Assembly: GCA_039796775.1 (NCBI GenBank)
Contig: JBDKJD010000004.1
Span: 6,103 to 70,102, forward strand
Length of the DNA stretch: 64,000 nucleotides
Direction of reading: 5' to 3'
Source: Candidatus Parcubacteria bacterium
GTDB taxonomy: Bacteria; Patescibacteriota; Minisyncoccia; Phycocordibacterales; UBA5272
In this document: positions 2,380 through 20,518 of the stretch, one piece after another
Numbering within the stretch: the stretch's first letter is position 1
How the letters are laid out: every line of letters begins with the position of its first letter
The notes under the pieces: generated by a model
The model's input: the letters and a program-made list of their open reading frames with translations, nothing else
Told to the model about the DNA's origin: nothing
Database searches by the model: none
Made by a program: the position numbers and the translations under genes

Positions 2380-2991
2380 CTATTCTGCAAGTCCGTCTAG
2401 ATTCACATCATAAAGCATTGCTTCTGTCACGAGACGATAGTTCATGATCTCTTCCTTAGTAAACCACAGATCTACCTCTCTTTGATACGCTCCTTCACCA
2501 TCTGCCGGATCAGTGCAGTGTATTAGATTACGCATGCCACGAGATCCATCAACATCACAAAGGTAATAAGAGTCGAGCGCATAGTCTCCTCGTATTGTAC
2601 CTGAGTCAGCTGTTGTAGGCTCAGTACCACCAACCAGACGCTTCACTACAGCTTGAGCCTGATTCCCTTCTATAACAAGAGACACTACAGGTCCAGCACA
2701 CATGTAGTGCACCATGGCACGAATAATATCCTTTCCATATTCAATCGCTTCTTTGTCGATGGTATGACCAAGTTTCTTTTTGTTCTCAAGAATATTAGTC
2801 CCTTTTTTGAGATACCAAGCATCATCTTTATTGTAATGCTTCCACAACGTCTCTTCGTTGACCATATGCATTTTCATGCCAACAATTTTAAGACCAATTC
2901 TTTCGAAACGCTTAACTATTTCACCGACTAAGCCACGCTGTACCGCGTCTGGTTTAAGGATAATAAATGTTCTTTCTTTTTTTGGATGCAT
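2380..2991 (-). CDS. ndk: nucleoside diphosphate kinase
   Basis: N-terminal ERTFIILKPDAVQRGLVGEIVKRFE and conserved NDK core; ends on TAG. Confidence 0.9.
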   Translation of the reverse strand: MHPKKERTFIILKPDAVQRGLVGEIVKRFERIGLKIVGMKMHMVNEETLWKHYNKDDAWYLKKGTNILENKKKLGHTIDKEAIEYGKDIIRAMVHYMCAGPVVSLVIEGNQAQAVVKRLVGGTEPTTADSGTIRGDYALDSYYLCDVDGSRGMRNLIHCTDPADGEGAYQREVDLWFTKEEIMNYRLVTEAMLYDVNLDGLAE

Positions 2992-5161: not shown

Positions 5162-6007
5162 TTATTCTGGTATAGAAAACATTCTCTTCACATTCTCTAA
5201 CACCTGTATACGCATCGTCTCCATATCTTCGTTTCTGAGCACTGCCATACGAGCAACCACTTCTTGCACTTTAAGTGAATCATTTCTCTCCCCTCTGAAT
5301 GGAGCAGGTGTCGCATATGGGCTATCTGTCTCTGCAATAATCATAGTTGGGGGTAAAAATCTGACAACATCATCGTAATCTTTGGTAAACGTAATAACTC
5401 CGGAGAAGCTCATAGTGAATCCAATCTCAATAAACCGCTTAGCTATGTCGATGTCTCCTACAAAAAAATGTGCATTGCCTCGCAATTTAGTCCCGTACTT
5501 TTTCTTGGCGCCTTCAAGCATAAAAAGCATGTCTTCATACGCATCCATCGTGCCTTTACTTGGTCTACCGTGGAGCATGAGGGGTAAGTTAAGTTCTACA
5601 GCAAGATGTATCTGCTCTTCAAAAATTCTCTTCTGTCTGTCTGCTTCAGCGTCTTTATTCCAAGATAAGCCCTTCTCTTTCTTATCTCTATCAAAAAATG
5701 TCTCAACATAGTGGTAATCGAGTCCACATTCCCCTATTGCGACAACCTTTTTACTCTTAGCTAAGTCGCGATAAAACCCTGCATCAAATTCCTCCGTGAC
5801 ATTGTCTGCTGGATGATGCCCGACACTTGCGAAAACATGCTCACACTTCTCAGCTAAAGCAACCGCTTTTGTACTCTCTTCTTTATCTGTACCAACGGTT
5901 ATAGCCCCAACACCATAGGACTTCATAGAAGCGAGCACCTGGTCTCTATCTTCATCATACTTTCTGTCATGGAGATGCGCATGGGCATCAAAGAGAGCGT
6001 AGTTCAT
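5162..6007 (-). CDS. tatD: TatD-family metal-dependent hydrolase/DNase
   Basis: N-terminal FDAHAHL, internal GECGLDYH and later His/Asp ligands typical of TatD amidohydrolase fold. Confidence 0.85.
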   Translation of the reverse strand: MNYALFDAHAHLHDRKYDEDRDQVLASMKSYGVGAITVGTDKEESTKAVALAEKCEHVFASVGHHPADNVTEEFDAGFYRDLAKSKKVVAIGECGLDYHYVETFFDRDKKEKGLSWNKDAEADRQKRIFEEQIHLAVELNLPLMLHGRPSKGTMDAYEDMLFMLEGAKKKYGTKLRGNAHFFVGDIDIAKRFIEIGFTMSFSGVITFTKDYDDVVRFLPPTMIIAETDSPYATPAPFRGERNDSLKVQEVVARMAVLRNEDMETMRIQVLENVKRMFSIPE

Positions 6008-6050
6008 GGGGGGGGTAGTTATTAGTGGTTAGTGGTTAGTGGTTAGAAAT
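6008..6050 (-). promoter_or_regulatory. tandem-heptamer leader element upstream of tatD
   Basis: sense CTAACCA CTAACCA CTAACCA CTAATAA CTACCCCCCC-ATG. Confidence 0.5.
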
Positions 6051-6150
6051 AAGTATACATCATACTCATTAGGTGCAATCGGTGACATCTTCTTAGATAA
6101 AAGAAAACAGCTCATATGGGAGCTGTTTTTGGGGACAGATTTTTCATCTG

Positions 6151-6704
6151 TTACTTGATAGGGGTTGGAGACTTCGTGCCTGATCTTACCATACTAAGCT
6201 CTAGCCGTGTCTCCATCAGAAGTTTACCTAAATGATTCTGTCCCTGACGAGAAGAGTCTGGATATACGGCGACACCAAAAAAGGCATCTCCCCACCAATT
6301 CGTTTCTTCTAGATGTTTCCCTACTGTTGACAGGAGAAAATCTCCAAGTTTTGGGTTGCCATAAATTTTGACCAAAGAATTTGTTTCATGACGGACAATT
6401 TACGCTCCTCCCACTCCTCTTCTGTATATGCCCACAGATGTCGCTTTTGGCCCAAAGTTTTGGCTTGTTTTGGAGACACAAAAACAAACTGAGATCGCAA
6501 ATATCTTTGATCTTGTTGAACGGTTGAAAACTTGGCAGCTTGATAGGCATTCTCGCTTGATGGGTAAATCACACCCTCAAAGACAACTTGGCATGGCCAC
6601 ATGTTGGAAAGTGGTCTATATTCGCCAAAAAATCCTCCTATTTTTGTCGCGCTGATTTCTTGAATCAATTGCGCTTTCTTGCTAAGAGAAAGTTGAGCAT
6701 TCAT
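6151..6704 (-). pseudogene. NADAR (YbiA/DUF1768-like N-glycosidase) domain gene split by a frameshift into two overlapping ORFs
   Basis: ORF 6321..6704 carries NADAR N-terminal half (GEYRPLSNMWPC..YPSSENAYQAAKF), ORF 6151..6375 carries the C-terminal half (ETNWWGDAFFGVAVY...GQNHLGKLLMETR); frames overlap 6321-6375. Confidence 0.55.
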
Positions 6705-6773
6705 GGTAACACTCCTTCAAAGATCAACTAAACAAAGAACCATAATGAATCCTAATAGTAACTTATAGATAAA

Positions 6774-8198
6774 TCAAAGTCTGCCGAACAACGGAGATTC
6801 TGGCATCTTGTTTTCACGAATACATTCTAAAATCTTCGCTGAAGTTCGTGGCATGAATGACACTAATTCACACACAATAACATCAAGCTCTGAGAGACAA
6901 TGATAGAGCATTTCTTTTCCTTTTACTTCGTCGACTTTTATAACCTTAAAAGGTTCATTAGAAGCAATATATTCATCAAGTGTACGCATACGATTCATTA
7001 CTTGTTTTAAAGCTAGATTCATATCATGATTATCTTCTATGAGTGTTACCATCTTTGGCTGACCGAGAGTCACACCATTTGTTGTAACCATTTTCATCAC
7101 GCGACTTGTTAAATTACCAATGCCATTTACTAGATGAGCTGTGTATGAAGCTCGTATTGAATCGATAGTAATGTCTCCATCTTCAAATGAAGGTATCTCA
7201 TGAAGAAGCACAAAGCGAAGCGCTTCCCCGGCCAAATCACCGCACACGGGACGAAACATTTCTATTACTTCATTCGGATCTATCACATTACCGAGTGATT
7301 TACTCATCTTCTGTCCTCCTGATGTGATATGCCCGTGAACGAGTATTTTCTTTGGAAGAGCCAAGCCTGCTGAGAGAAGCATTCCTGGCCAAATAGCCGC
7401 ATGGAAACGAAGAATATCCTTGCCGATAATATGAGTAGTGTTACTCCATCTCTCATTATCAAATGACTCGGTGCCATACCCGATCGCTGTAATATAGTTA
7501 GAGAGTGCGTCACACCATACATACATGACATGCTCTTCATCTCCTGGAACTGGTATACCCCAACCAATCTTAGACCTCGGTCGAGAGAAAGAAACCTTTT
7601 CTAACCCTCTATCAATAAATGCCAGAATTTCGTTCTCACGACTCTTCGGGAATACCTGCATCTCACCGCTCACCATAGCTTCTTTTATTCTGGTTGTATA
7701 CTTTGGTAAATCAAAAAAATAATTCTCTTCTTCGACTTCTTCTGGAGCCTTGAGATGCGCTTGACACTCTCCCTTTTCATTAAGATCTGAATCTTTTTTG
7801 AACTCTTCACATCCTACACAATAGAGAGCTTTGTATTTTTCTTTTGTTATGTCGCCATTTTCTACGAGCTTATTCCATATCGCTTGCGCACCTTTGTAAT
7901 GTTTCTCTTTGTCACTTGTGCGTACAAAATAATCAGGTATAACTGAAAGCTCTTTGTCGAGTGACTTAAAAGCTTCTGCATAAGCATCTACGAAGTCTTG
8001 CACGTCTATTCCTTTTTCTTTAGCTTTCTCTTGTATCTTCTGACCATGCTCATCCATTCCTGTAATGAAAAAAGTGTCTCCTTGTTGTCTAGAATATCTC
8101 GCAAGAGTATCAGCCATGACGAATTCAAAAGCATGCCCTATATGAGGAGCACCGTTTGCATACGCAATTGCTGTGGTGATTAATGTTTTATTCGACAT
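6774..8198 (-). CDS. metG: methionyl-tRNA synthetase (short form)
   Basis: HIGH motif (APHIGHAFE), KMSKS motif, MetRS Zn-knuckle region; likely start MSNKTLITT at 8198 (ORF track extends artificially to 8297 into neighbour). Confidence 0.9.
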   Translation of the reverse strand: MSNKTLITTAIAYANGAPHIGHAFEFVMADTLARYSRQQGDTFFITGMDEHGQKIQEKAKEKGIDVQDFVDAYAEAFKSLDKELSVIPDYFVRTSDKEKHYKGAQAIWNKLVENGDITKEKYKALYCVGCEEFKKDSDLNEKGECQAHLKAPEEVEEENYFFDLPKYTTRIKEAMVSGEMQVFPKSRENEILAFIDRGLEKVSFSRPRSKIGWGIPVPGDEEHVMYVWCDALSNYITAIGYGTESFDNERWSNTTHIIGKDILRFHAAIWPGMLLSAGLALPKKILVHGHITSGGQKMSKSLGNVIDPNEVIEMFRPVCGDLAGEALRFVLLHEIPSFEDGDITIDSIRASYTAHLVNGIGNLTSRVMKMVTTNGVTLGQPKMVTLIEDNHDMNLALKQVMNRMRTLDEYIASNEPFKVIKVDEVKGKEMLYHCLSELDVIVCELVSFMPRTSAKILECIRENKMPESPLFGRL

Positions 8199-11166: not shown

Positions 11167-11721
11167 TTATAATTGTGATTCTTTGAGCACTTGTAATGTA
11201 TGACGCTTCACTCTTTCTTTGTTGAGAAGTACATGAGTATAGAGATCATGTGTCGTGTATGACTTATATTCTGTTATATCTTTGGCACCTATTATCATAG
11301 CGTCAGCATATCCAAGCTCAACCAACATCACATAATGAATAAGGAGTCTTGTCGTTTCTTCGTCATATGAAGCACTCGCTTCTAATAACGCATACATCTG
11401 ATCGTATAATCTTCTACTTGGACCTTGTCCTTTGATGAATCTATTAATAAGCGAAGTGATTGTGTCGTGTAATGTTGACTCCATCAGTATCTCTTCCCCA
11501 CCTACTACTCTCCATACTTCTTTGCCTCTTACTAAAGTAACTCTTGATAATTGCCTTGGGCGTATATGCGCTCTTAACTTACTCTCCAATTTTCTAATAC
11601 CTTTGGCGATAGCAATAATCAAACCGAACTCTCTTGTGAAAAGTTTAAAAGCTTTGTCATGTTCTCCTTGATCATAACTTTCGATAACAAAAGAATCTGT
11701 TGTGTATTTTTCTATAGCCAC
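11167..11721 (-). CDS. recO: DNA repair protein RecO (short form)
   Basis: N-terminal OB-fold pattern (..SFVIESYDQGEHDKAFKLFTREFGLIIAIAKGIRKLESKL..) matching RecO. Confidence 0.55.
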   Translation of the reverse strand: MAIEKYTTDSFVIESYDQGEHDKAFKLFTREFGLIIAIAKGIRKLESKLRAHIRPRQLSRVTLVRGKEVWRVVGGEEILMESTLHDTITSLINRFIKGQGPSRRLYDQMYALLEASASYDEETTRLLIHYVMLVELGYADAMIIGAKDITEYKSYTTHDLYTHVLLNKERVKRHTLQVLKESQL

Positions 11722-11748: not shown

Positions 11749-14700
11749 TTAGACAACAGATAAATACACCACACCAGAAGAAAGTTCGACCACGTTCTCG
11801 GTAAGCGATATGTCGACTTTAATTTCTTTTATTTTGCAAACAGAAAGAAGTGAAGACATGTCTCCAAAATCAAGATCTTTTGAGATAGTGAGAGTTATCT
11901 CATCTCCAGGGACGAGCCCTGCTTCTTTGCGAGCATCCTGTACTGCGCGCATTACCTTACGGAGATCCCCCTCTTTCTGCAACTCTTCGGTGATAGTTGT
12001 ATCTAAGGTTACATCTTCTACTTGGCTTACATCATACTTAACCTCTTTCACATTAAGCTCATCAAGTATGAGCTGTTTATATTCATCATCTAGTTTTTCT
12101 TTAAATGTGACAGAAAGGAGAGGCTGCTTAACATTAAGCTTAAGAGCTGTTCTTTTCATGAGTCCTAGGGAGACAAGTTCACGAGTCTTCTTCATCATAG
12201 TGAGAACTTCTTCTTCGATCATTCCTTCGCTTGGCCAGCTCTCTAGGTGTACAGATTCTTTCTCTTTGCTCACCGTCATATAGATACGCTCAGCCATAAA
12301 CGGCATAACAGGCGCTATAGCTTTTGAGAATACATCTAGGGCGTATGATAGTACTCCGTAGGTTTCTTTCTTTATCTCCTCACCTTCATCTCCTTTAAGT
12401 GCGCCTCTTGTGCGGCGTACATACCACACAGAAAGATCATCCACGAACTGATCGACTCCTCGAGTTGCTTCATCAAGAGTGTAGGAGTTATACCCACTAG
12501 TTGCGTCTCTTACAACCTCATGGACACGACTAAGTATCCACCTGTCTAGTACATTGTTTCCGACAGACATTCTTTCTGCACCGTCTATCTTATTCATCTC
12601 GTAGAGAGAGAGCACATTCTCAAGACGCTGTATAACTTTTTTGTACACCTCTTCCACACTCTTATCTGAGAACTCAACACTCTCACCCTTAATAACTGGC
12701 GATGATAAAAGAAAGTATCTAATTGCATCAACACCGAATTTTTCTACAAGTAGAAGCGGGTCAGTATAATTTTTCTTACTCTTACTCATTTTCTCTCCAC
12801 CTTCTGCAAGCACCACGCCATTTACAATGACATGTCTGTACGGCGCCTTATCAAAGAGTCCGACACTTAGATTGATGAGTGAATAGAACCAACCTCTTGT
12901 CTGGTCCATCCCTTCTGCGATAAAGTCAGCAGGAAAGTTTTTATCAAAGAGTTCTTTGTTCTCAAATGGATAATGAAGAGAAGCGAAAGGCATAGACCCA
13001 GATTCGTACCAACAATCAAACACATCAACTACACGCTTGTATTCTTTCCCATCAATCTCTAAGACAACCTCATCTATATACGGACGATGAAGATTAATAG
13101 CTCCAGTCTCATCTCTTGGGACGAGCAATAGATCAAGCTTTCTCACTTCTGCATTGCCTGGATAAAGCTTCGCACCTTCATGTTCGTCATCATGTATCAA
13201 CTCTTCTTCTGTTGTGAGAGTAGCTCCAGCAAAAATCATACGCGCAGGACCCCCGTGGGTAACGATGAGAATATTTTTTCCTTCATAGTTCTTCTCAAGA
13301 TCACAGAGTGCGGCCACGGAGCGATGCATCATCTCTTCGTGAGTCTCTCCGCCTTCTACACGAGTATCATATGCAACGAATGATCCAGGAAGAGAGGCGA
13401 AGTATTCATCCCTACTCTTCCCGTCAAAGATTCCCATGTCATACTCTCTCAGTCTTTCATCAAACTCAACCTTAACGCCAAGGATACTGCCAACAATCTC
13501 TGCTGTTTCCTTTCCACGAAGTACAGGAGACGCGACAATCATGTCTATCTTTTTGTCCTGAAGAAGTAGAGCGGCGTCTGTTGCCTGACTCATCCCCTTT
13601 TCCGTAAGATGATTATCTTTATTGGTGCCTTTATCTAAAATATTATTCACATTGCTCCACGCTTCTCCGTGACGCATGACATAGTAGGTGTTCTTTGGTT
13701 TATCTTTGCGAAGCTGCGCGAGCTCTTTCAAGGAACCCAAAACTTTTATATCTCCATCTTCGCTCTTCCACACAGGAAGTGGTGCCCCCCAATACCGTGT
13801 GCGAGATACAGCCCATTCACGAGCCCCTTCTAACCACTTGCCGAAACGGCCATCTTTAATATGTGACGGTGTCCAACCAATCTTACTATTTTCTTCTAGG
13901 AGTTTGTCTTTGATTTTTGGAACATCGATAAACCATGACGATGTCGCATAGTTAAGAAGCGGTGTAGAACATCTCCAGCAGAGTGGATATGAGTGGACTA
14001 TCTTATGCTTCTCAAAAAGCTTCCCGTTATGGGCGAGCCATTTAATGATTTCAATATCAGCTGATTGAGTATCATCCTTCTTCTTCACTTTCATTCCAGC
14101 AAAATCAGTCACAGCATCTGTGAATGTTCCATCCATCTTCACGTGCTTAATAATTGGTATCTTGTTAGCTTTTGCTAATTCCATGTCATCTGCTCCAAAG
14201 GCTGGAGCTTCGTGCGCGACACCTGTTCCTGTGTCGTCGGTGATGAAGTCTGCGTGCCATATCTTCCAAATGTTTTCTTTGTTCTCAAGAGAGACGTCTT
14301 TGAAGTAAGCAAATGGTGGGAGGTATGACTTACCTATCAAACTATTAACATCTACTATTTCTCCTACGGTAAACACCTTTCCTTTGAAAGTTTCTTCCAC
14401 TCGACTTTTAGCCAGAATAAAGGTTGCACCTTCTTCCCCTTCTACATTCATTACTTTTACATACTCTATATCTTTATGGATTGCGAGTGCTGTATTTCCA
14501 GGAAGAGTCCACGGTGTTGTAGTCCACGCGAGAACATATGTTCCCAGCTCATCACAAAGCTCAAACTTCACAGTTACTGAGAGATCTGTGACATCATGAT
14601 ACTCAAGACCAACCTCTGATTGAGCAAGCGGGGTCTCACATCTCGGACAGATATGCATCATCTTATTCCCTTCATATGCGAGACCCTTCGTATAGAGTTC

Positions 14701-15198
14701 TTTCCACGCCCACCAAATACTTTCTGTATAGGTGTGATCCATCGTCTTGTACGGATGCTCCATATCAACCCATCTTCCAAGACGGGGAACTATTCTTTTC
14801 CACTCTGCATCATATTGTAGAACTGACGCAGCAGCCTCATGATTAAACTTTCCTATTCCATACTCTTCAATGTCTTTCTTCGACGCGAGTTCGAGTTTCT
14901 TCTCTATCAAGTTCTCAATTGGAAGCCCATGACAATCCCAACCCCATACACGACGAACACTGTTCCCCTTCATTGTTTGATATCTTGGAATCGCATCTTT
15001 GATGGTACCTGCCAAGATATGTCCCATATGTGGAAGACCTGTTGCAAACGGAGGCCCGTCATAAAAAGTAAAATCTCCTTTTGGTACATCTCCGCCTGGA
15101 GTCTCGAGCGACTTTTCAAAAATCTTTTTCTCTTGCCAGAAAGCCAATGTCTCTAACTCTTTCTCGTTAATAGTTTTTGGGGTTGGGGTATCGTTCAT
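11749..15198 (-). CDS. ileS: isoleucyl-tRNA synthetase (eukaryote/archaeal type 2) carrying an inserted histidine-phosphatase (PGAM-like, RHG) domain
   Basis: PPFATGLPHMGHIL (HMGH), WAVSRTRYWGAPLPVW, KMSKSKKN; ~165 extra residues (aa ~504-665, nt 13204-13689) with RHGE...THGG histidine-phosphatase signature between PLPVW and LHRPYIDE. Confidence 0.9.
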   Translation of the reverse strand: MNDTPTPKTINEKELETLAFWQEKKIFEKSLETPGGDVPKGDFTFYDGPPFATGLPHMGHILAGTIKDAIPRYQTMKGNSVRRVWGWDCHGLPIENLIEKKLELASKKDIEEYGIGKFNHEAAASVLQYDAEWKRIVPRLGRWVDMEHPYKTMDHTYTESIWWAWKELYTKGLAYEGNKMMHICPRCETPLAQSEVGLEYHDVTDLSVTVKFELCDELGTYVLAWTTTPWTLPGNTALAIHKDIEYVKVMNVEGEEGATFILAKSRVEETFKGKVFTVGEIVDVNSLIGKSYLPPFAYFKDVSLENKENIWKIWHADFITDDTGTGVAHEAPAFGADDMELAKANKIPIIKHVKMDGTFTDAVTDFAGMKVKKKDDTQSADIEIIKWLAHNGKLFEKHKIVHSYPLCWRCSTPLLNYATSSWFIDVPKIKDKLLEENSKIGWTPSHIKDGRFGKWLEGAREWAVSRTRYWGAPLPVWKSEDGDIKVLGSLKELAQLRKDKPKNTYYVMRHGEAWSNVNNILDKGTNKDNHLTEKGMSQATDAALLLQDKKIDMIVASPVLRGKETAEIVGSILGVKVEFDERLREYDMGIFDGKSRDEYFASLPGSFVAYDTRVEGGETHEEMMHRSVAALCDLEKNYEGKNILIVTHGGPARMIFAGATLTTEEELIHDDEHEGAKLYPGNAEVRKLDLLLVPRDETGAINLHRPYIDEVVLEIDGKEYKRVVDVFDCWYESGSMPFASLHYPFENKELFDKNFPADFIAEGMDQTRGWFYSLINLSVGLFDKAPYRHVIVNGVVLAEGGEKMSKSKKNYTDPLLLVEKFGVDAIRYFLLSSPVIKGESVEFSDKSVEEVYKKVIQRLENVLSLYEMNKIDGAERMSVGNNVLDRWILSRVHEVVRDATSGYNSYTLDEATRGVDQFVDDLSVWYVRRTRGALKGDEGEEIKKETYGVLSYALDVFSKAIAPVMPFMAERIYMTVSKEKESVHLESWPSEGMIEEEVLTMMKKTRELVSLGLMKRTALKLNVKQPLLSVTFKEKLDDEYKQLILDELNVKEVKYDVSQVEDVTLDTTITEELQKEGDLRKVMRAVQDARKEAGLVPGDEITLTISKDLDFGDMSSLLSVCKIKEIKVDISLTENVVELSSGVVYLSVV

Positions 15199-15480
15199 AA
15201 TAATTAATTAGTTGATAGAAAAAAGAAAACTCGCCCTCATGAACTACGATTTCTCATAGTTCACAAGGACGAGCATTCTTAAATGTCGTGGTACCACCTT
15301 GGTTTATGTTCGCATCGTTAAGAAAAAGTTTTTTTCTTAACGATGCGAACAACTCATTTGTATTGGGTTCTACTTAGTATTTCCATAGGTCTTGCCTATG
15401 GGAATACTTTTCTTCCCATAACTCCGGGGTGATTAGTCCCATCAACGTTATATAGTTACTATTCTATAGTATTGATAATA
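15199..15480 (-). promoter_or_regulatory. T-box riboswitch leader (Ile specifier) with intrinsic terminator upstream of ileS
   Basis: On minus strand: specifier-like loop GGGACUAAUCACCCC (AUC+A), T-box sequence AAGGUGGUACCACG, then terminator CUCGUCCUUGUGAACUA...UAGUUCAUGAGGGCGAG followed by UUUUCUUUUUU just before the ATG; plus a 21-bp perfect hairpin (15311-15355). Confidence 0.7.
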
Positions 15481-15513: not shown

Positions 15514-16017
15514 TTAGGATAGAGATGATATCTTTTCTTTATCTAAAAGAGCAATGTTATCTGCTGTAAAAACAGGAGTATACAATCTAACTGAAACATA
15601 CAGATTTTTATCAAAAGTAACAAGAGGAACTCCTATAGCTAAAGAGTGTGCAGCTATAGTAAGATCTGTTGTTCTTAAAAAGTTATCCCTAATCTTTTTC
15701 TTAACCTCTTCTTTGCTGTGAAACTTATGGACGGCTTTAATAAAACTCAAGAAAGACAACTTAAGGACCACTACACCGGGATCAAAAATAAATTTAGTAA
15801 TAGCTTTTTGCACATCCTCTGGATGATAACCTTTTCTTAACAAAACAATAGCTGTCTCTTCTATGCTCGTCTCACTAACAAAAATTCTTTTCTTTTTTCC
15901 TAAGTCTGATCCTATCTTTCTCACAAAATCTGCCGCAGCAGAACTTAACTCTTCATCAGGAACAAGTAGACCTATGACAACATTGGAATCGATCAGGAAG
16001 CCACTATACTGATCCAT
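15514..16017 (-). CDS. PIN-domain ribonuclease (VapC-like toxin)
   Basis: N-terminal FLIDSNVVIG.. and C-terminal TDLTIAAHSLAIGVPLVTFDK acidic-quartet pattern. Confidence 0.7.
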   Translation of the reverse strand: MDQYSGFLIDSNVVIGLLVPDEELSSAAADFVRKIGSDLGKKKRIFVSETSIEETAIVLLRKGYHPEDVQKAITKFIFDPGVVVLKLSFLSFIKAVHKFHSKEEVKKKIRDNFLRTTDLTIAAHSLAIGVPLVTFDKNLYVSVRLYTPVFTADNIALLDKEKISSLS

Positions 16018-16117
16018 ATCTTAGTTCAGACAAAATTTGCGCTGCACTTTTTTCAGATTTTATTTTAGGTAACTTTATTTTAAGCAAATTGCTTTTTATA
16101 ACAGTTTTTTTATTCAT
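16004..16117 (-). CDS. small ORF (37 aa, MNKKTVIKSNLLKIKLPKIKSEKSAAQILSELRYGSV) overlapping PIN gene start; putative antitoxin
   Basis: ATG at 16117, stop overlaps PIN start by 14 nt (typical TA coupling); not in ORF track (<60 aa). Confidence 0.25.
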   Translation of the reverse strand: MNKKTVIKSNLLKIKLPKIKSEKSAAQILSELRYGSV

Positions 16118-16203: not shown

Positions 16204-16237
16204 TGATTTTCAGGCGATGTCCCCAGCCTGAAAATCA
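16204..16237 (-). other. 12-bp perfect inverted repeat (TGATTTTCAGGC-10nt-GCCTGAAAATCA) overlapping argS stop codon
   Basis: seen directly; no U-tract after it, so not a canonical terminator. Confidence 0.3.
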
Positions 16238-17971
16238 CATTCTCTCAGGCGCATTACATCCAAGAACATGGAGCCCGTCCTTGAGAATATACTTCACTCT
16301 TCTCACAATAGCTAAGCGATGAGCATTCCCCTCCACATCTTCCTCTACAATAATCTGATTCGATGCATAATAACTATTAAATGATTGGGCGATAGTAAAA
16401 AGATAACTCACGAGCTTCTGTGGTGAGAGTGTATCGATAACGTCTGTGAGCACTTCTTCGTAATGAAGCAACTCTCTTTCAAGTGATGTAGCTGCGAAAT
16501 TACCAAACTCTGGATTCTCGACACCACCCTTCTCAAGAAGTGATGAAGTACGTGCATGCGTATACATGAGGTACGGACCAGAGTCTCCTTCAAATGACAA
16601 TGACGTCTCAGGGTCAAAGTTAATATTGATACCCGGCTTTGAACGAAGCACTGCCACACGAAGTGCAGAGAGTGCAACATCTCGCACAAGACTATCTTTT
16701 TCTTCATCACTTAAGTGCGCAATTTTGTCACTACTTTTTTCTCTTACTTCTTCTTCGACTGCAGCAATAACATCAAGCGCAAGCGGTACACCACCTAAGC
16801 GACTAGACATCTTAGCTCCTTTAAAGAGCATGCGACCGTGAGGTACGTGTATACTTTTATCAGCCCACGATTTCCATGTGGCATCTATCTTTGAAGTCGC
16901 ATCAAGAACAACCTTGAAGTGGTGCGTCTGTTCTGTGTCTGTTATAAAATATGATACATCAACATTTCCGTACTCAGTAAACTTTTTGTAAATAAGCCCT
17001 ATATCTTTCGCTTCGTAGGTTGGGTGCCCTTCGCTATTAATGAATACTGAGGTATTAATATCTTTTCTCTCTTCATCTGGAACATAGACGATTGCACCCT
17101 GACTTTCAGTAAACACTTTCCCTTCTCCAGTGTGATTAAGAACAATTTCTTTCCCGATCTCTTCAACATCACTTTCAAAAATAACTTTTCCCATTTTTGA
17201 GCCAAGGCTTTCGAGTGCGTTTTCAAAATAGATAGTATTAATGCTTCTTGCTTTGTGCCATAACTCTACATCTTCTCCAGAATTTTTCTCATAAAGATTC
17301 TTAGCGATCTGTCGCATCTCTTTTTCTGCTTCTTGATTTTCTTTTGCAAGAGCTACTCCACGCACGTAACAGGTTCCGAAATAATCTACTATCTTTGACT
17401 CTTCTTCAAGCGAATGATCTTGTAAAAGAAAATTAATATCAGGTGACACACCCTCTTCTTTATCCTTCTTCCAAATATAAATAGCCTTGGCGATACCAAA
17501 AGAAATGTCAGATGGGAAACATAGTACTTGGGGTTGTGTCCCTCCTCTTGCTACAGCACGAGTAACAAACTCTCCGACAATATTATTCATCAAGTGCCCA
17601 ATATGGAACGGCTTAAAAAGGTTCGGAGATGAGTGCTCAACAAGAATTTTTTTTCCTTTTAATCTTATAGAGATTTCTTTTTCTTTGTTTTCTTCTCGGA
17701 TCTTTTCGTCTGTTAAGAAAAAATTAATAAACCCAGGACCTGCGATTTCTATTTTAGAAATAACGCCCTTTTCTTTTAAAGCAATCTCGAGTTTCGCAAC
17801 AAACTCATCAGCAAGAGCTTTTGGAGAAACACCTCGCGGTTTAGCAAGAACAAGACATACGTTAGTAGCGTAGTCACCATAAGCAATATCAGAAGGGGTC
17901 TCAAGAATAAATGACACATTTTCTCCTCCTAATTTCTGTATTTCATTTTTTATGACATCATATGCATTCAT
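16235..17971 (-). CDS. argS: arginyl-tRNA synthetase
   Basis: ArgRS N-terminal add-1 domain, HIGH motif (PFHIGHLMNN), C-terminal DALM anticodon-binding domain. Confidence 0.9.
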   Translation of the reverse strand: MNAYDVIKNEIQKLGGENVSFILETPSDIAYGDYATNVCLVLAKPRGVSPKALADEFVAKLEIALKEKGVISKIEIAGPGFINFFLTDEKIREENKEKEISIRLKGKKILVEHSSPNLFKPFHIGHLMNNIVGEFVTRAVARGGTQPQVLCFPSDISFGIAKAIYIWKKDKEEGVSPDINFLLQDHSLEEESKIVDYFGTCYVRGVALAKENQEAEKEMRQIAKNLYEKNSGEDVELWHKARSINTIYFENALESLGSKMGKVIFESDVEEIGKEIVLNHTGEGKVFTESQGAIVYVPDEERKDINTSVFINSEGHPTYEAKDIGLIYKKFTEYGNVDVSYFITDTEQTHHFKVVLDATSKIDATWKSWADKSIHVPHGRMLFKGAKMSSRLGGVPLALDVIAAVEEEVREKSSDKIAHLSDEEKDSLVRDVALSALRVAVLRSKPGININFDPETSLSFEGDSGPYLMYTHARTSSLLEKGGVENPEFGNFAATSLERELLHYEEVLTDVIDTLSPQKLVSYLFTIAQSFNSYYASNQIIVEEDVEGNAHRLAIVRRVKYILKDGLHVLGCNAPERM

Positions 17972-18892: not shown

Positions 18893-20518
18893 TTAATCTG
18901 CAAGAAGGGAAAGTTTGGCCTGAGTTGCCATCTCTCCAGCAAGCCGAGTGAGTTCAGCATCCTCCTTTGTGTCCACGAACCTCATTGCTGCCGCAATCCT
19001 CGGATATACCGAAGCGAACTTCTCATGCATTGTGAGAGTTACCCTGCGGTAACCAGGATGGCCTTCTGGCATGCTCCTGATTTCGTGAAGGTGGAAAGAT
19101 TCACGCGTGTTAACCGCTTCACGCCACCGCATACGGTGCCCGAGCAGGGTGGTGTACTGCGACTCCTGTTCGAACCCTTGCCTTTTAACTTCACCATACA
19201 ACTTTTCCGCGATATCGAACGCCTCAACGAACGGCTTTTCTAGTCCGGCCTCAATCACAACAGGCGGAATCTCGTAGCCGAGGAACGGCGTAAGATCCTG
19301 CCAGTCCATGCCGTCTACTGGGCGATGGCGCTGTAGGTCACGAAAAATCCCATAGTCCGTCACGTTTTCCCACTTGGTTTGTAGGAATTCGAACGAACGT
19401 CCTGGGCGATGGCGCCGGTTGTACCGGGTTCCAATTCCTGCTTGAAGGACTCTCACGAGTTGCTCCTGACTGAGGTTTTGGGCTTGCCGCATGACACTTT
19501 CGTAGCTTTGATCAGAACCTGTCCACAACAAGTCCGCGACAACAGACATCTCATCCTGAGGCCAGTGATTAACCAGGTTGACTTCGACACCAGGGGCAAT
19601 GATCTCTTCCGGAGATAGGTATTCCTTAGCAAGGACACGAACATCCTGCCGGATTTGTCGACGATAATTGATTGCTGCGCCACCGCGTTCAGGGATATCC
19701 GTGCGCTCAAAAAACTGAGGAGCTATGACACGAACTTGTTGGAGAAGCTTCTTCCCGAGCTCGTTGGCTTCCAGGAGATCAAGCGACGCAAGTCGCATGA
19801 TGAGATAGTCAAACGACTGCGCATTGCCGACAATGCCGACTGTCGAAGTCGTCGCAACAGGAAGCATGTTACGTGCCGCATCACATGCTTGGGCGCGGGT
19901 GGCACCCATCCATGCGACTCTTTCCCTTTTTTCTTCTGAAGGATCCGACAAAGAAAAGGGTGACTTCTTTCTGATGTACCCCGAAAGCTCCCGCACCACT
20001 TCTGAGTAGAGTGCGAAAATGCGGTCCATATCCGTGCGATACCTGTTGAGAAGCGTTTCTGGAAAATTCATCGGCACATAGTACCGATACACCAGCTTGC
20101 CGTCCTTGTCGTAAACCTGCACATCAAAGTAGATGTAACGGGTCGACTGTTCAAGGTAGGCAGCGAACCGCCCCCTTTCCAGGAACTTGGTCATGATGTT
20201 AGAGCATTGTTCGACGACGACCGAAAGCGGCATGAGCTGCTGCACCGAGTCGTCACCGTAGCCTGTAATCACACGCTTGAAGAGCCCGTTCAAGACATCA
20301 CCAGATTTACCGGCGAACTCTTTCAGGATCACCATCCGCATGTCGTCCCCCGTGCGGGAGAGACGAGCCATGGCGCCGGCGATCATCAAGGGTTCGGCTT
20401 CGCGAGAGAAGGCATACACCTACCCTTGCGGATCAGTCGTGATCTTGGCCAGATAATTCAAGCCAAATTCGGTAGGAACAGCAATGCTGCCCTCCATGCG
20501 AAAATACTCTTGTTCCAT
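18893..20518 (-). CDS. thyX: ThyX (Thy1, flavin-dependent thymidylate synthase)-like protein with two tandem ThyX-like domains; GC-rich; interrupted by one in-frame TAG (20420-20422)
   Basis: ATG 20518 with GAAAGGAAAT RBS; MEQEYFRMEGSIAVPTEFGLNYLAKITTDPQG-TAG-VYAFSREAEPLMIAGAMARLS..; ARNMLPVATTST...N.QSFDYLIMRL and second-half RHRPVDG / RMRWREAVNTRESFHLHEIRS resemble ThyX motifs; ~50 % GC vs ~36 % flanks. Confidence 0.55.

Follow-up and report, generated by a model that had tools for sequence, protein, structure and literature searches.

Why would the gene for an aminoacyl-tRNA synthetase carry, in frame, the sequence of what looks like a second enzyme? The question is raised by ileS in a 64,000-nucleotide stretch of DNA from a Candidatus Parcubacteria bacterium (NCBI GenBank assembly GCA_039796775.1, contig JBDKJD010000004.1, positions 6,103 to 70,102), which is called the window here and whose numbering is used throughout. 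An earlier sequence-only reading, which had seen the nucleotides and their open reading frames (ORFs), proposed that a histidine phosphatase domain is inserted inside the isoleucyl-tRNA synthetase (IleRS) encoded by this gene. We analyzed the synthetase, the insert, their relatives and their gene neighborhoods by computation. The results described below suggest that the insert is an apparently active phosphatase of the PhoE kind, and that related bacteria encode either this nested form or a free-standing homologue beside an ileS that does not contain the insert.

The gene is one unbroken ORF on the minus strand (11749..15198) encoding a protein of 1149 aa, whereas translation of the plus strand over 13204–13689 gave stop codons throughout, as a minus-strand gene predicts. 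Its assignment as ileS rests on the ORF, on the NCBIfam model TIGR00392 (825.4 bits against a cut-off of 621.4), on Pfam and on a match to a solved IleRS. Pfam recognized tRNA-synt_1 in two pieces, the first at aa 17–504 and the second past the insert, together with Anticodon_1 and DUF5915. By motif location, the HMGH form of the HIGH signature lies at 15019..15030 (minus strand; aa 57–60) and KMSKS at 12778..12792 (minus strand; aa 803–807); WAVSRTRYWGAPLPVW was located at aa 462–477 and LHRPYIDE at aa 703–710, and the editing-site motifs WTTTPWT and GTGxAHxAPAFGxxD were invariant across 77 homologues. Type-2 sequences in the PDB matched with E-values of 1e-64 to 1e-68, type-1 sequences only with 1e-19 to 1e-22. 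The closest IleRS structures were those of Priestia megaterium IleRS2, yeast and Thermus thermophilus, in the same order by sequence search and by Foldseek, the best being P. megaterium IleRS2 (8C8V, E=1e-68). The description of the host as a type-2 HMGH/KMSKS enzyme collinear with canonical IleRS was thus correct, with the motifs placed as stated, the type-2 structures closest and DUF5915 present. Judged by its sequence, this type-2 IleRS retains its synthetic and editing motifs intact and looks fully functional. The full-length AlphaFold model had a mean predicted local distance difference test score (pLDDT) of 78.7 and a predicted template modeling score (pTM) of 0.66, and the insert was its most confident part. 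In GenBank, the source metagenome-assembled genome (MAG) names the product "hypothetical protein" and its relatives go by "class I tRNA ligase family protein", uninformative names that presumably arise because the insert interferes with naming rules.

To place the insertion, aa 417–833 were aligned to solved IleRS structures. Residue 483 of T. thermophilus IleRS stood opposite aa 501 of the window protein and residue 489 opposite aa 702, and about 200 residues replaced a loop of 5–6 residues found in the human, yeast, Candida albicans, P. megaterium and T. thermophilus enzymes. The whole inserted segment, compared with IleRS that have no insert, therefore comprises aa 502–701 (13096..13695, minus strand). 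An extra segment is indeed present, as had been proposed, but its size had been put at about 165 residues, which is too small. In Candida IleRS, the third connective polypeptide (CP3) consists of residues 473–534 (PMC7191050). Candida residues 421–499 aligned to aa 420–497 of the window protein and residues 505–534 aligned from aa 701 on, so that the insertion lies inside CP3, at its tip, flanked by the counterparts of residues 499 and 505 of the Candida enzyme. By this alignment and the model, the N-terminal half of CP3 occupies about aa 472–501 (13696..13785, minus strand), with predicted strands at 476–479 and 484–486 and a helix at 490–496, and the C-terminal half, starting from the LHRPYID motif, occupies about aa 702–731 (13006..13095, minus strand), with a predicted beta hairpin at 712–722. 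CP3 of T. thermophilus carries a zinc knuckle, and both the zinc site and the topology of CP3 vary among IleRS (PMC7191050). The zinc-knuckle cysteines have been lost in the window IleRS; many distant insert-bearing relatives keep them as CxxC...CxC, on both sides of the insert.

The insert matched His_Phos_1 (PF00300) at aa 506–662, between the two tRNA-synt_1 halves, with E=4e-34 and 118.4 bits against a cut-off of 21.7. Modeled alone by AlphaFold, it reached a pLDDT of 92 and a pTM of 0.89, and within the full-length model the means of its 10-residue blocks were 90–96. Foldseek matched the insert model to PspA, GpgP, HFP, PhoE and TIGAR with template modeling (TM) scores of 0.72–0.77 and a probability of 1.00, and the best sequence match among solved structures was PhoE (1EBB, E=1.6e-13). 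Taken together, Pfam, AlphaFold, Foldseek and alignment to free-standing homologues delimit the phosphatase domain proper to aa 503–692 (13123..13692, minus strand). The interval 13204–13689, to which the sequence-only reading had assigned the domain, corresponds to aa 504–665 and lies within it; the lower limit was set too early, because the fold runs about 27 residues further, to about aa 692. The model also shows a predicted cap subdomain of the PhoE/PspA kind. From the profile, the catalytic set and the predicted fold, we conclude that the insert is a branch-1 histidine phosphatase.

The insert could not be assigned to a named subfamily of this superfamily. It missed the equivalog cut-offs for cofactor-dependent phosphoglycerate mutase (dPGM), with 90.8 bits against 225 for dPGM_arch, 25.3 against 81.7 for pgm_1 and 62.8 against 261 for GpmB, as well as those for named phosphatases, with 86.2 against 162.9 for CobC, 56.6 against 350 for PspA and 39.7 against 74.5 for SixA. 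At two dPGM motif sites the insert reads REYDMG and THGGPAR; the dPGM counterparts of these motifs are ERHYG and HGNSLR. Phosphoglycerate mutase and the other named phosphatase subfamilies were rejected, since all curated cut-offs were missed. As a side observation, the weak matches of the insert to phosphoglycerate mutase models could mislead automated metabolic reconstruction.

The catalytic residues could be placed by alignment to PhoE 1EBB. The RHG motif (R509, H510 and G511; 13666..13674, minus strand) aligns with R9 and H10 of PhoE, with H510 as the predicted phospho-acceptor nucleophile; R561 (13516..13518, minus strand), a second phosphate-binding arginine, pairs with the arginine in sgRalET of PhoE; E585 (13444..13446, minus strand), the predicted general acid/base, aligns with the glutamate of the DERLRE motif; and H648 in THGG (13255..13257, minus strand), the second catalytic histidine, aligns with the histidine of the VTHG motif. 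The sequences around the RHG motif and the second catalytic histidine are YYVMRHGEAWSN at aa 505–516 and IVTHGGPARMIFAG at aa 645–658. Together with the Pfam match, this alignment bears out the proposal that the RHG motif and a second histidine mark a histidine phosphatase. Conservation was computed over 151 full-length IleRS. R509, H510, R561, E618 and H648 were conserved in 100% of them, E585 and R626 in 99%, G511 in 97% and N516 in 95%; the cap region of the domain was poorly conserved. Identity in the insert was 0.58 among near relatives and 0.36 among distant ones, compared with 0.56 and 0.35 for the anticodon-binding and C-terminal region. The length of the insert within the family was 174–198 aa, and its GC content was that of the remaining ileS. 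These patterns point to clear purifying selection on the phosphatase active site, and the insert is, as far as sequence can tell, a complete and apparently active histidine phosphatase.

We then asked how widespread the nested form is. GenBank holds a protein identical to the window IleRS, from a Candidatus Parcubacteria MAG, and all 120 of the 120 best full-length database matches (64–100% identity, 1138–1214 aa) carried PF00300 in the same architecture. A word-indexed search with the insert alone had returned 7 matches and given an impression of rarity, which the full-length search and an exhaustive search overturned. In the latter, the insert was compared with 1.84 billion cluster representatives (clusters at 50% identity) and the best 150 were examined; the majority were IleRS with the domain at the same site and 31–51% insert identity. 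A further 31 more distant full-length cluster representatives also carried the insert in frame, and 42 GTDB species genomes, labeled as Paceibacterota, Parcubacteria, Nomurabacteria, Kaiserbacteria, Vogelbacteria and the "Patescibacteria group", matched over the complete insert and both flanks, with continuous IleRS frames at nearly all of these 42 loci. The comparison of sequences shows that the nested architecture has been inherited across many Paceibacteria (Parcubacteria) lineages. In phage genomes, only generic homologues of the insert were found, at about 30% identity. Within the best 150 relatives of the insert, a single fusion involved a partner other than IleRS, namely a metagenomic protein of 579 aa (P0265/P0284), in which a QueC/QatC-like PP-loop ATPase is joined to a closely related histidine phosphatase with intact catalytic residues.

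That the fusion might be an artefact of assembly or gene calling that joined two genes is suggested by some database entries that are fragments (P0001 and P0004) and by one chimeric contig (L045). However, identical in-frame junctions occur in hundreds of independent assemblies from differing projects and assemblers, and the fragment entries are frameshifts on long-read contigs; we consider the chance of such an artefact practically negligible and rejected the misassembly, or two-gene, reading. The domain is a true in-frame insertion and not an adjacent gene, as the sequence-only reading had held: the ORF is single, and its junction is kept in hundreds of assemblies. The checks that this reading had named all spoke for its proposal: alignment to structures mapped the insertion to the CP3 tip, the profile search matched His_Phos_1 well above its cut-off, the survey of related IleRS found the insert in each of the closest matches, and structure prediction gave a confident phosphatase fold.

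Several candidate exceptions were examined and discarded. The 218-aa protein P0001 was rejected as a natural split gene, because ileS at its locus (L001) consists of four overlapping ORFs, typical of frameshift errors. Locus L046 was rejected as a close insert-less relative, because its gap is a run of N followed by the conserved linker LPKNEEFEVDLHRP, the insert being unassembled. Spread beyond the Candidate Phyla Radiation (CPR) through L045, labeled "Actinomycetota" (CAVYAD010000032.1, 90635–100629), was rejected as well: the contig passes from about 71% to about 54% GC near its end, where a frameshifted ileS of CPR type, insert included, is located, so that it is probably a chimeric long-read assembly. 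Finally, L035 and L042, contigs of 2–3 kb in bins of other phyla, were rejected as evidence of wider distribution, since they probably reflect mis-binning.

A free-standing homologue, P0002, is a 183-aa protein with 48% identity to the insert in the best local alignment and 42% in the full alignment. Its family comprised 485 matches at E<=1e-10; the best 120 were 179–232 aa long, and their names include Candidatus Staskawiczbacteria, Parcubacteria group, Patescibacteria group and "broad specificity phosphatase PhoE". At all seven of the seven free-standing loci examined, the order was argS, the phosphatase gene, 0–3 other genes and ileS, in the same orientation. The phosphatase gene stops 2–6 nt short of the ileS start at four of them (L049, L050/L051, L052 and L057); elsewhere, there is an 85-nt gap (L053), one unannotated gene (L058) or three genes (L055), the last being an RHH-ParE toxin–antitoxin pair and an HD_3 gene. 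The six complete ileS genes at these loci encode proteins of 946–987 aa without PF00300, while the L049 contig stops inside ileS. As in the window, recO lies downstream of ileS. The insert-less IleRS of L050 has ELEKASGVKVTDLHKDV at the insertion point and is 50% identical to the window protein in its N-terminal part and 43% in its C-terminal part, about as near to it as distant insert-bearing IleRS are.

The free-standing proteins (180–197 aa) start with MKLNNKYYxLRHGE, finish with ...ELN and align with the insert end to end: the free-standing protein matches from its residue 4 to its last residue, and the insert from the KxKNxYY junction to its last strand. Because both termini match, the insert corresponds to an entire free-standing gene. 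No separate His_Phos ORF was found within up to 6–10 kb on each side of ileS (less on short contigs) at more than 40 loci with an intact nested form, nor was there a second His_Phos copy elsewhere in the 64-kb window. We infer from these comparisons that the nested and the neighboring-gene forms represent a single enzyme pair in two versions, connected by a gene fusion or a fission. In a limited sample of sequences, the comparisons amount to a gene-fusion (Rosetta stone) link, a conserved neighborhood and a complementary distribution.

These results bear on whether the domain does anything at all. It could be a passenger or structural insert, captured from a neighboring gene and tolerated in a permissive loop without an activity that matters. 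CP3 varies among IleRS in its zinc site and topology (PMC7191050), the insert sits at the tip of a loop, and other proteins of this genome, such as nucleoside diphosphate kinase, seem to carry inserts, all of which would fit such a passenger. By contrast, the catalytic residues are invariant across sequences of about 35% identity, nearly every tandem copy included, the domain has diverged no more than the anticodon-binding region, and the free-standing homologue is retained exactly where the insert is absent. A passenger therefore seems very improbable.

Some relatives depart from the common arrangement in the site or the number of the domains. In window numbering, the domain follows the HYPF motif (about aa 745–755) in P0175, P0141 and P0228; a second copy stands right before the anticodon-binding domain (about aa 865–880) in P0135, P0141, P0228 and P0146; a tandem pair occupies CP3 in P0151, P0169, P0179 and P0191; and P0128, on one truncated contig, has four copies. 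The complete variant copies that were checked keep the catalytic residues, the exceptions being E618 and R626 in copy 1 of P0200 and N516 in copy 3 of P0128. P0141 belongs to a cluster of six proteins, all equally long, which lie on contigs of up to 1.06 Mb. In a tree of the phosphatase domain, the second tandem copies were each other's nearest relatives, indicating that the duplication is old and inherited. A neighbor-joining tree of IleRS was computed with the inserts masked, in which five variant hosts were placed: these five and the ordinary form P0190 made up one clade with 100% bootstrap support, and insert-less IleRS fell at two positions, in a long-branch clade (100%) and, for L050, beside P0167 (89%).

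On this evidence we favor, as the reading that is probably right although well short of certain, an autonomous PhoE-like phosphomonoesterase that is tied to IleRS by operon or by fusion. The enzyme would hydrolyze phosphomonoesters by way of phospho-His510; the phosphate would be held by R509, R561 and H648, and E585 would serve as acid/base. As an autonomous module, it would follow IleRS in dosage and location and would not be precisely aimed at the aminoacylation site; because the enzyme also occurs unfused, at two to three other sites of IleRS and in multiple copies, its chemistry would not depend on exact placement by that site. The substrate would be a small phosphomonoester, most likely of the nucleotide type, for example a product or side product around the adenylate-forming reaction. 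That such a molecule is a likelier substrate than tRNA or protein is our guess, weakly held, made because the nearest solved relatives (PhoE, PspA, GpgP, CobC, HFP and TIGAR) are short-cap, small-molecule phosphatases and because the domain is acidic, with a charge that is not conserved.

Several points weigh against this reading. The insert falls under the cut-off of every NCBIfam equivalog, its sequence names no substrate, and the variable cap, which suits broad specificity, equally fits an enzyme that mainly reads a terminal phosphate, for example at the end of an RNA. The autonomy of the module is something that we infer indirectly, and the pTM of the full-length model is only 0.66. Underlying the complementary distribution are 7 free-standing loci and about 45 nested ones, the latter with flanks of at most 6–10 kb. 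Adjacency in an operon need not imply shared function in streamlined genomes, and mere proximity could account for the capture of a phosphatase gene and not another. The neighbor-joining tree splits the insert-less IleRS, with one group on a long branch, and is not decisive on the direction and the number of fusion or fission events, and the tree of the phosphatase domain, which asked whether the nested copies are monophyletic, gave no resolved answer.

The variant forms also bear on a different role, in which H510 would be phosphorylated by a glycolytic donor, such as 2,3-bisphosphoglycerate or phosphoenolpyruvate, and the domain would act as a metabolite sensor that tunes IleRS activity. In favor of this, the phospho-acceptor histidine does not vary, nor do the residues that work with it; CP3, from which the insertion projects, has its base next to the active site; and mutases with a stable phospho-histidine are relatives of the family. 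However, an unfused form and two to four copies at varied sites sit badly with a defined allosteric path, and the dPGM-specific models scored far under their cut-offs, which makes such a sensor highly doubtful. If it did exist, translation would be coupled to energy status in a regulator-poor cell.

We next considered the setting in which ileS is expressed. The gene lies between argS (16235..17971, minus strand), its conserved upstream neighbor by Pfam and synteny, and a recO-like gene (11167..11721, minus strand), its conserved downstream neighbor by Pfam RecO_N and synteny. The block common to the window and its relatives comprises tmk, argS, ileS, recO, a membrane protein gene, an AI-2E transporter gene, metG, tatD, rpsF, ssb, rpsR and ndk. 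Between argS and ileS, a T-box leader with a very short Stem I was found at 15262..15454 (minus strand), with its specifier at 15432–15434 and its T-box core, AGGUGGUACCACGAC, at 15285–15299. It matched Rfam RF00230 with 43.4 bits, under the gathering score of 93, and with E=1.5e-8 over the full model length, most of Stem I being absent. The specifier loop reads GGGAC-UA-AUC-A-CCCC, in which AUC, an isoleucine codon, is followed by a purine. A hairpin of 20 bp resembling an intrinsic terminator, with a U-run, lies at 15219..15274 (minus strand), 20 nt before the ileS start codon. The leader thus has a specifier with a purine after it, the T-box sequence itself and a terminator of the mutually exclusive kind. 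The leader is conserved upstream of ileS in L002, L005 and L008, and a T-box core lies about 90 nt upstream of ileS in 15 related loci.

Since the T-box leader is conserved in relatives and the neighborhood is a housekeeping one, synteny and the isoleucine specifier indirectly support the view that this gene, the sole visible IleRS copy within the window, is the working IleRS of the cell. Because the leader precedes the nested gene, the presence of a T-box means that in T-box lineages the phosphatase would be induced in response to uncharged tRNA(Ile). Such brevity of Stem I is typical of translational, not transcriptional, T-boxes (PMC7583486), and a terminator-type T-box with this feature in a CPR bacterium may be worth separate attention.

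Expression in part of the family is governed by a T-box, which detects tRNA(Ile) by its free 3′ end; this would agree with a role of the phosphatase in tRNA-end repair, in which the enzyme clears a 3′ phosphate or pyrophosphate that blocks tRNA(Ile), or tRNAs generally, and IleRS delivers it. Examples of such lesions would be a 3′-phosphate left by a cyclizing nuclease or a 3′-pyrophosphate added by toxSAS-type toxins. Blocking of the CCA end does occur as a physiological lesion: toxSAS toxins attach pyrophosphate to the tRNA 3′-CCA end and so block aminoacylation (bioRxiv 10.1101/2021.04.30.441581; PMC11559606). The association with IleRS is specific among the best 150 relatives of the domain and is kept whether the enzyme is a neighboring gene, a nested domain or present in multiple copies, and the poorly conserved cap would suit an enzyme that recognizes the terminal phosphate only. 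Against this, the nearest structures are all small-molecule phosphatases, and action on RNA ends is not known to us for any protein of the histidine phosphatase superfamily. The window domain has a net charge of −13 and the family ranges in isoelectric point from 4.8 to 10, with no conserved basic RNA-binding surface; as a test of RNA binding, net charge is weak evidence against only, because it is variable. In addition, one insertion site, right before the anticodon-binding domain, would lie far from the acceptor end, and protecting one tRNA species alone would help little. Overall, tRNA-end repair appears fairly unlikely.

The positions of the variant copies raise another alternative, namely that the domain is a protein phosphatase that protects IleRS by reversing phosphorylation of the synthetase, for instance where a HipA-like kinase toxin has modified the KMSKS loop, or that dephosphorylates some other translation factor. 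Three insertion sites flank KMSKS in sequence, at about −100, −55 and +65 residues, and in GltX and TrpS the corresponding loop is a target of HipA-type kinases. Proteins are among the substrates of the superfamily, and the SixA model matched the insert weakly; the RHG domain of mycobacterial MutT1, for example, acts on sensor kinases (PMC12407098). However, the insert has a PhoE/PspA-like cap subdomain, and no conserved kinase, toxin or hydrolase partner was found in the neighborhoods of the window, nested and free-standing loci compared. SixA is not known to carry a cap subdomain. To our knowledge, no phosphorylation of IleRS has been reported either, and a protein phosphatase of this kind seems quite improbable.

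A broader claim joins these two roles: the phosphatase would be a dedicated partner of IleRS that frees tRNA 3′ ends blocked through the action of toxins or nucleases, or that undoes phosphorylation of the synthetase by a toxin. We regard it as possible but doubtful. If true, it would be the first case of a phosphatase with a repair function that forms part of an aminoacyl-tRNA synthetase or is encoded together with one, and the variation among operon, nested and multi-copy forms would reflect an arms race in episymbiotic bacteria.

Other genes of the window deserve mention in their own right. A PIN-domain gene (15514–16017, minus strand) lies between argS and ileS, in the slot that the free-standing phosphatase occupies in sister lineages, and a 37-codon ORF (16004–16117) that overlaps its start could be an antitoxin candidate. 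From its gene content, the argS–ileS spacer looks like a hot spot for inserted genes. The nucleoside diphosphate kinase (2380–2991, minus strand) has 203 aa, and Pfam NDK, a model of 135 positions, matches it in two stretches, which suggests that it carries an insertion of about 60 residues; its homologues in L002 and L003 also have 205–206 aa. A 508-codon ORF at 18893–20419 (minus strand) encodes a ThyX-type thymidylate synthase whose Thy1 domain is limited to aa 14–235. In L002, whose IleRS is 90% identical to that of the window, DHFR and ThyA are encoded (5396–6928) where the window has ThyX; by sequence comparison, this is an analogous gene displacement between close relatives.

Returning to the autonomous phosphomonoesterase that we favor, its association with IleRS is of interest for several reasons. 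Aminoacyl-tRNA synthetases are among the best-studied enzymes, and their extra domains have repeatedly opened new biology. The family offers a natural experiment in which a neighboring gene became a nested domain, or the reverse, and it shows which loops in class I synthetases tolerate a module of 190 residues. It also poses a sharp question: which phosphorylated molecule needs handling wherever IleRS is made, in CPR organisms with few characterized functions? Interest would rise sharply if the phosphatase were found to act on tRNA ends or on the synthetase.

The sequence-only reading, which had named a phosphorylated nucleotide, a tRNA end or a regulatory alarmone as conceivable targets, did not note the neighboring-gene counterpart, the other insertion sites and copy numbers or the T-box leader. 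It knew of no fusion of a synthetase with such a phosphatase, and full-text literature searches likewise returned nothing relevant on a phosphatase nested in IleRS, although the sequences are public and bear automatic Pfam labels. The combination of a complete CP3-nested phosphatase in IleRS, its correspondence to a whole operon gene upstream and variants with multiple sites and copies thus appears to be undescribed. Its components nevertheless have well-known counterparts. PhoE/YhfR of Geobacillus stearothermophilus (1EBB, 1H2E) has the same fold and the same catalytic set of RHG, second arginine, glutamate and second histidine, and PhoE, PspA (4IJ5), GpgP Rv2419c (4PZ9), CobC and HFP (9MMH) are likewise proteins of about 200 aa with a short cap. 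However, enzymes of the PhoE group are free-standing and have known or broad substrates, whereas the window domain is nested in a synthetase or, in relatives, encoded upstream of one. The type-2, eukaryote-like and mupirocin-resistant IleRS (8C8V, 1ILE, 7D5C and 6LDK) are collinear with the window protein over their full length and share its signatures, editing domain, CP3 and DUF5915, but have 5–6 residues at the site where it has 200; the zinc cysteines of CP3 are kept by T. thermophilus and by many insert-bearing relatives and lost in the window protein.

Lineage-specific insertions are known in class Ia synthetases, with the CP1 editing domain, CP2, CP3 and the leucine-specific domain of LeuRS as examples. 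The connective-polypeptide loops of the Rossmann fold are the classic sites at which class I enzymes take up further modules, and the phosphatase makes use of one of these, CP3. As far as we know, the insertions known in class I enzymes serve editing, tRNA binding or zinc binding, and none of them is a whole enzyme from a different superfamily that brings an active site of its own. For IleRS, NF040702 (isoleucine--tRNA ligase, N-acetyltransferase domain-containing) offers a precedent for an unrelated catalytic domain, which is there a GNAT domain; the window IleRS scored 305 bits against its cut-off of 1999 and is not a member, and NCBIfam has no model for a phosphatase-bearing IleRS. PhoE/CobC-like domains have also been joined to enzymes of nucleic acids or nucleotides, in the RNase H/acid phosphatase of the Rv2228c type (NF005567, at 87 bits among the best NCBIfam matches of the insert) and in MutT1, which consists of a Nudix and an RHG domain (PMC11784022). 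By contrast with the IleRS case, in which the phosphatase is nested in a loop, these are end-to-end fusions with other partners, and their purpose is itself understood only in part.

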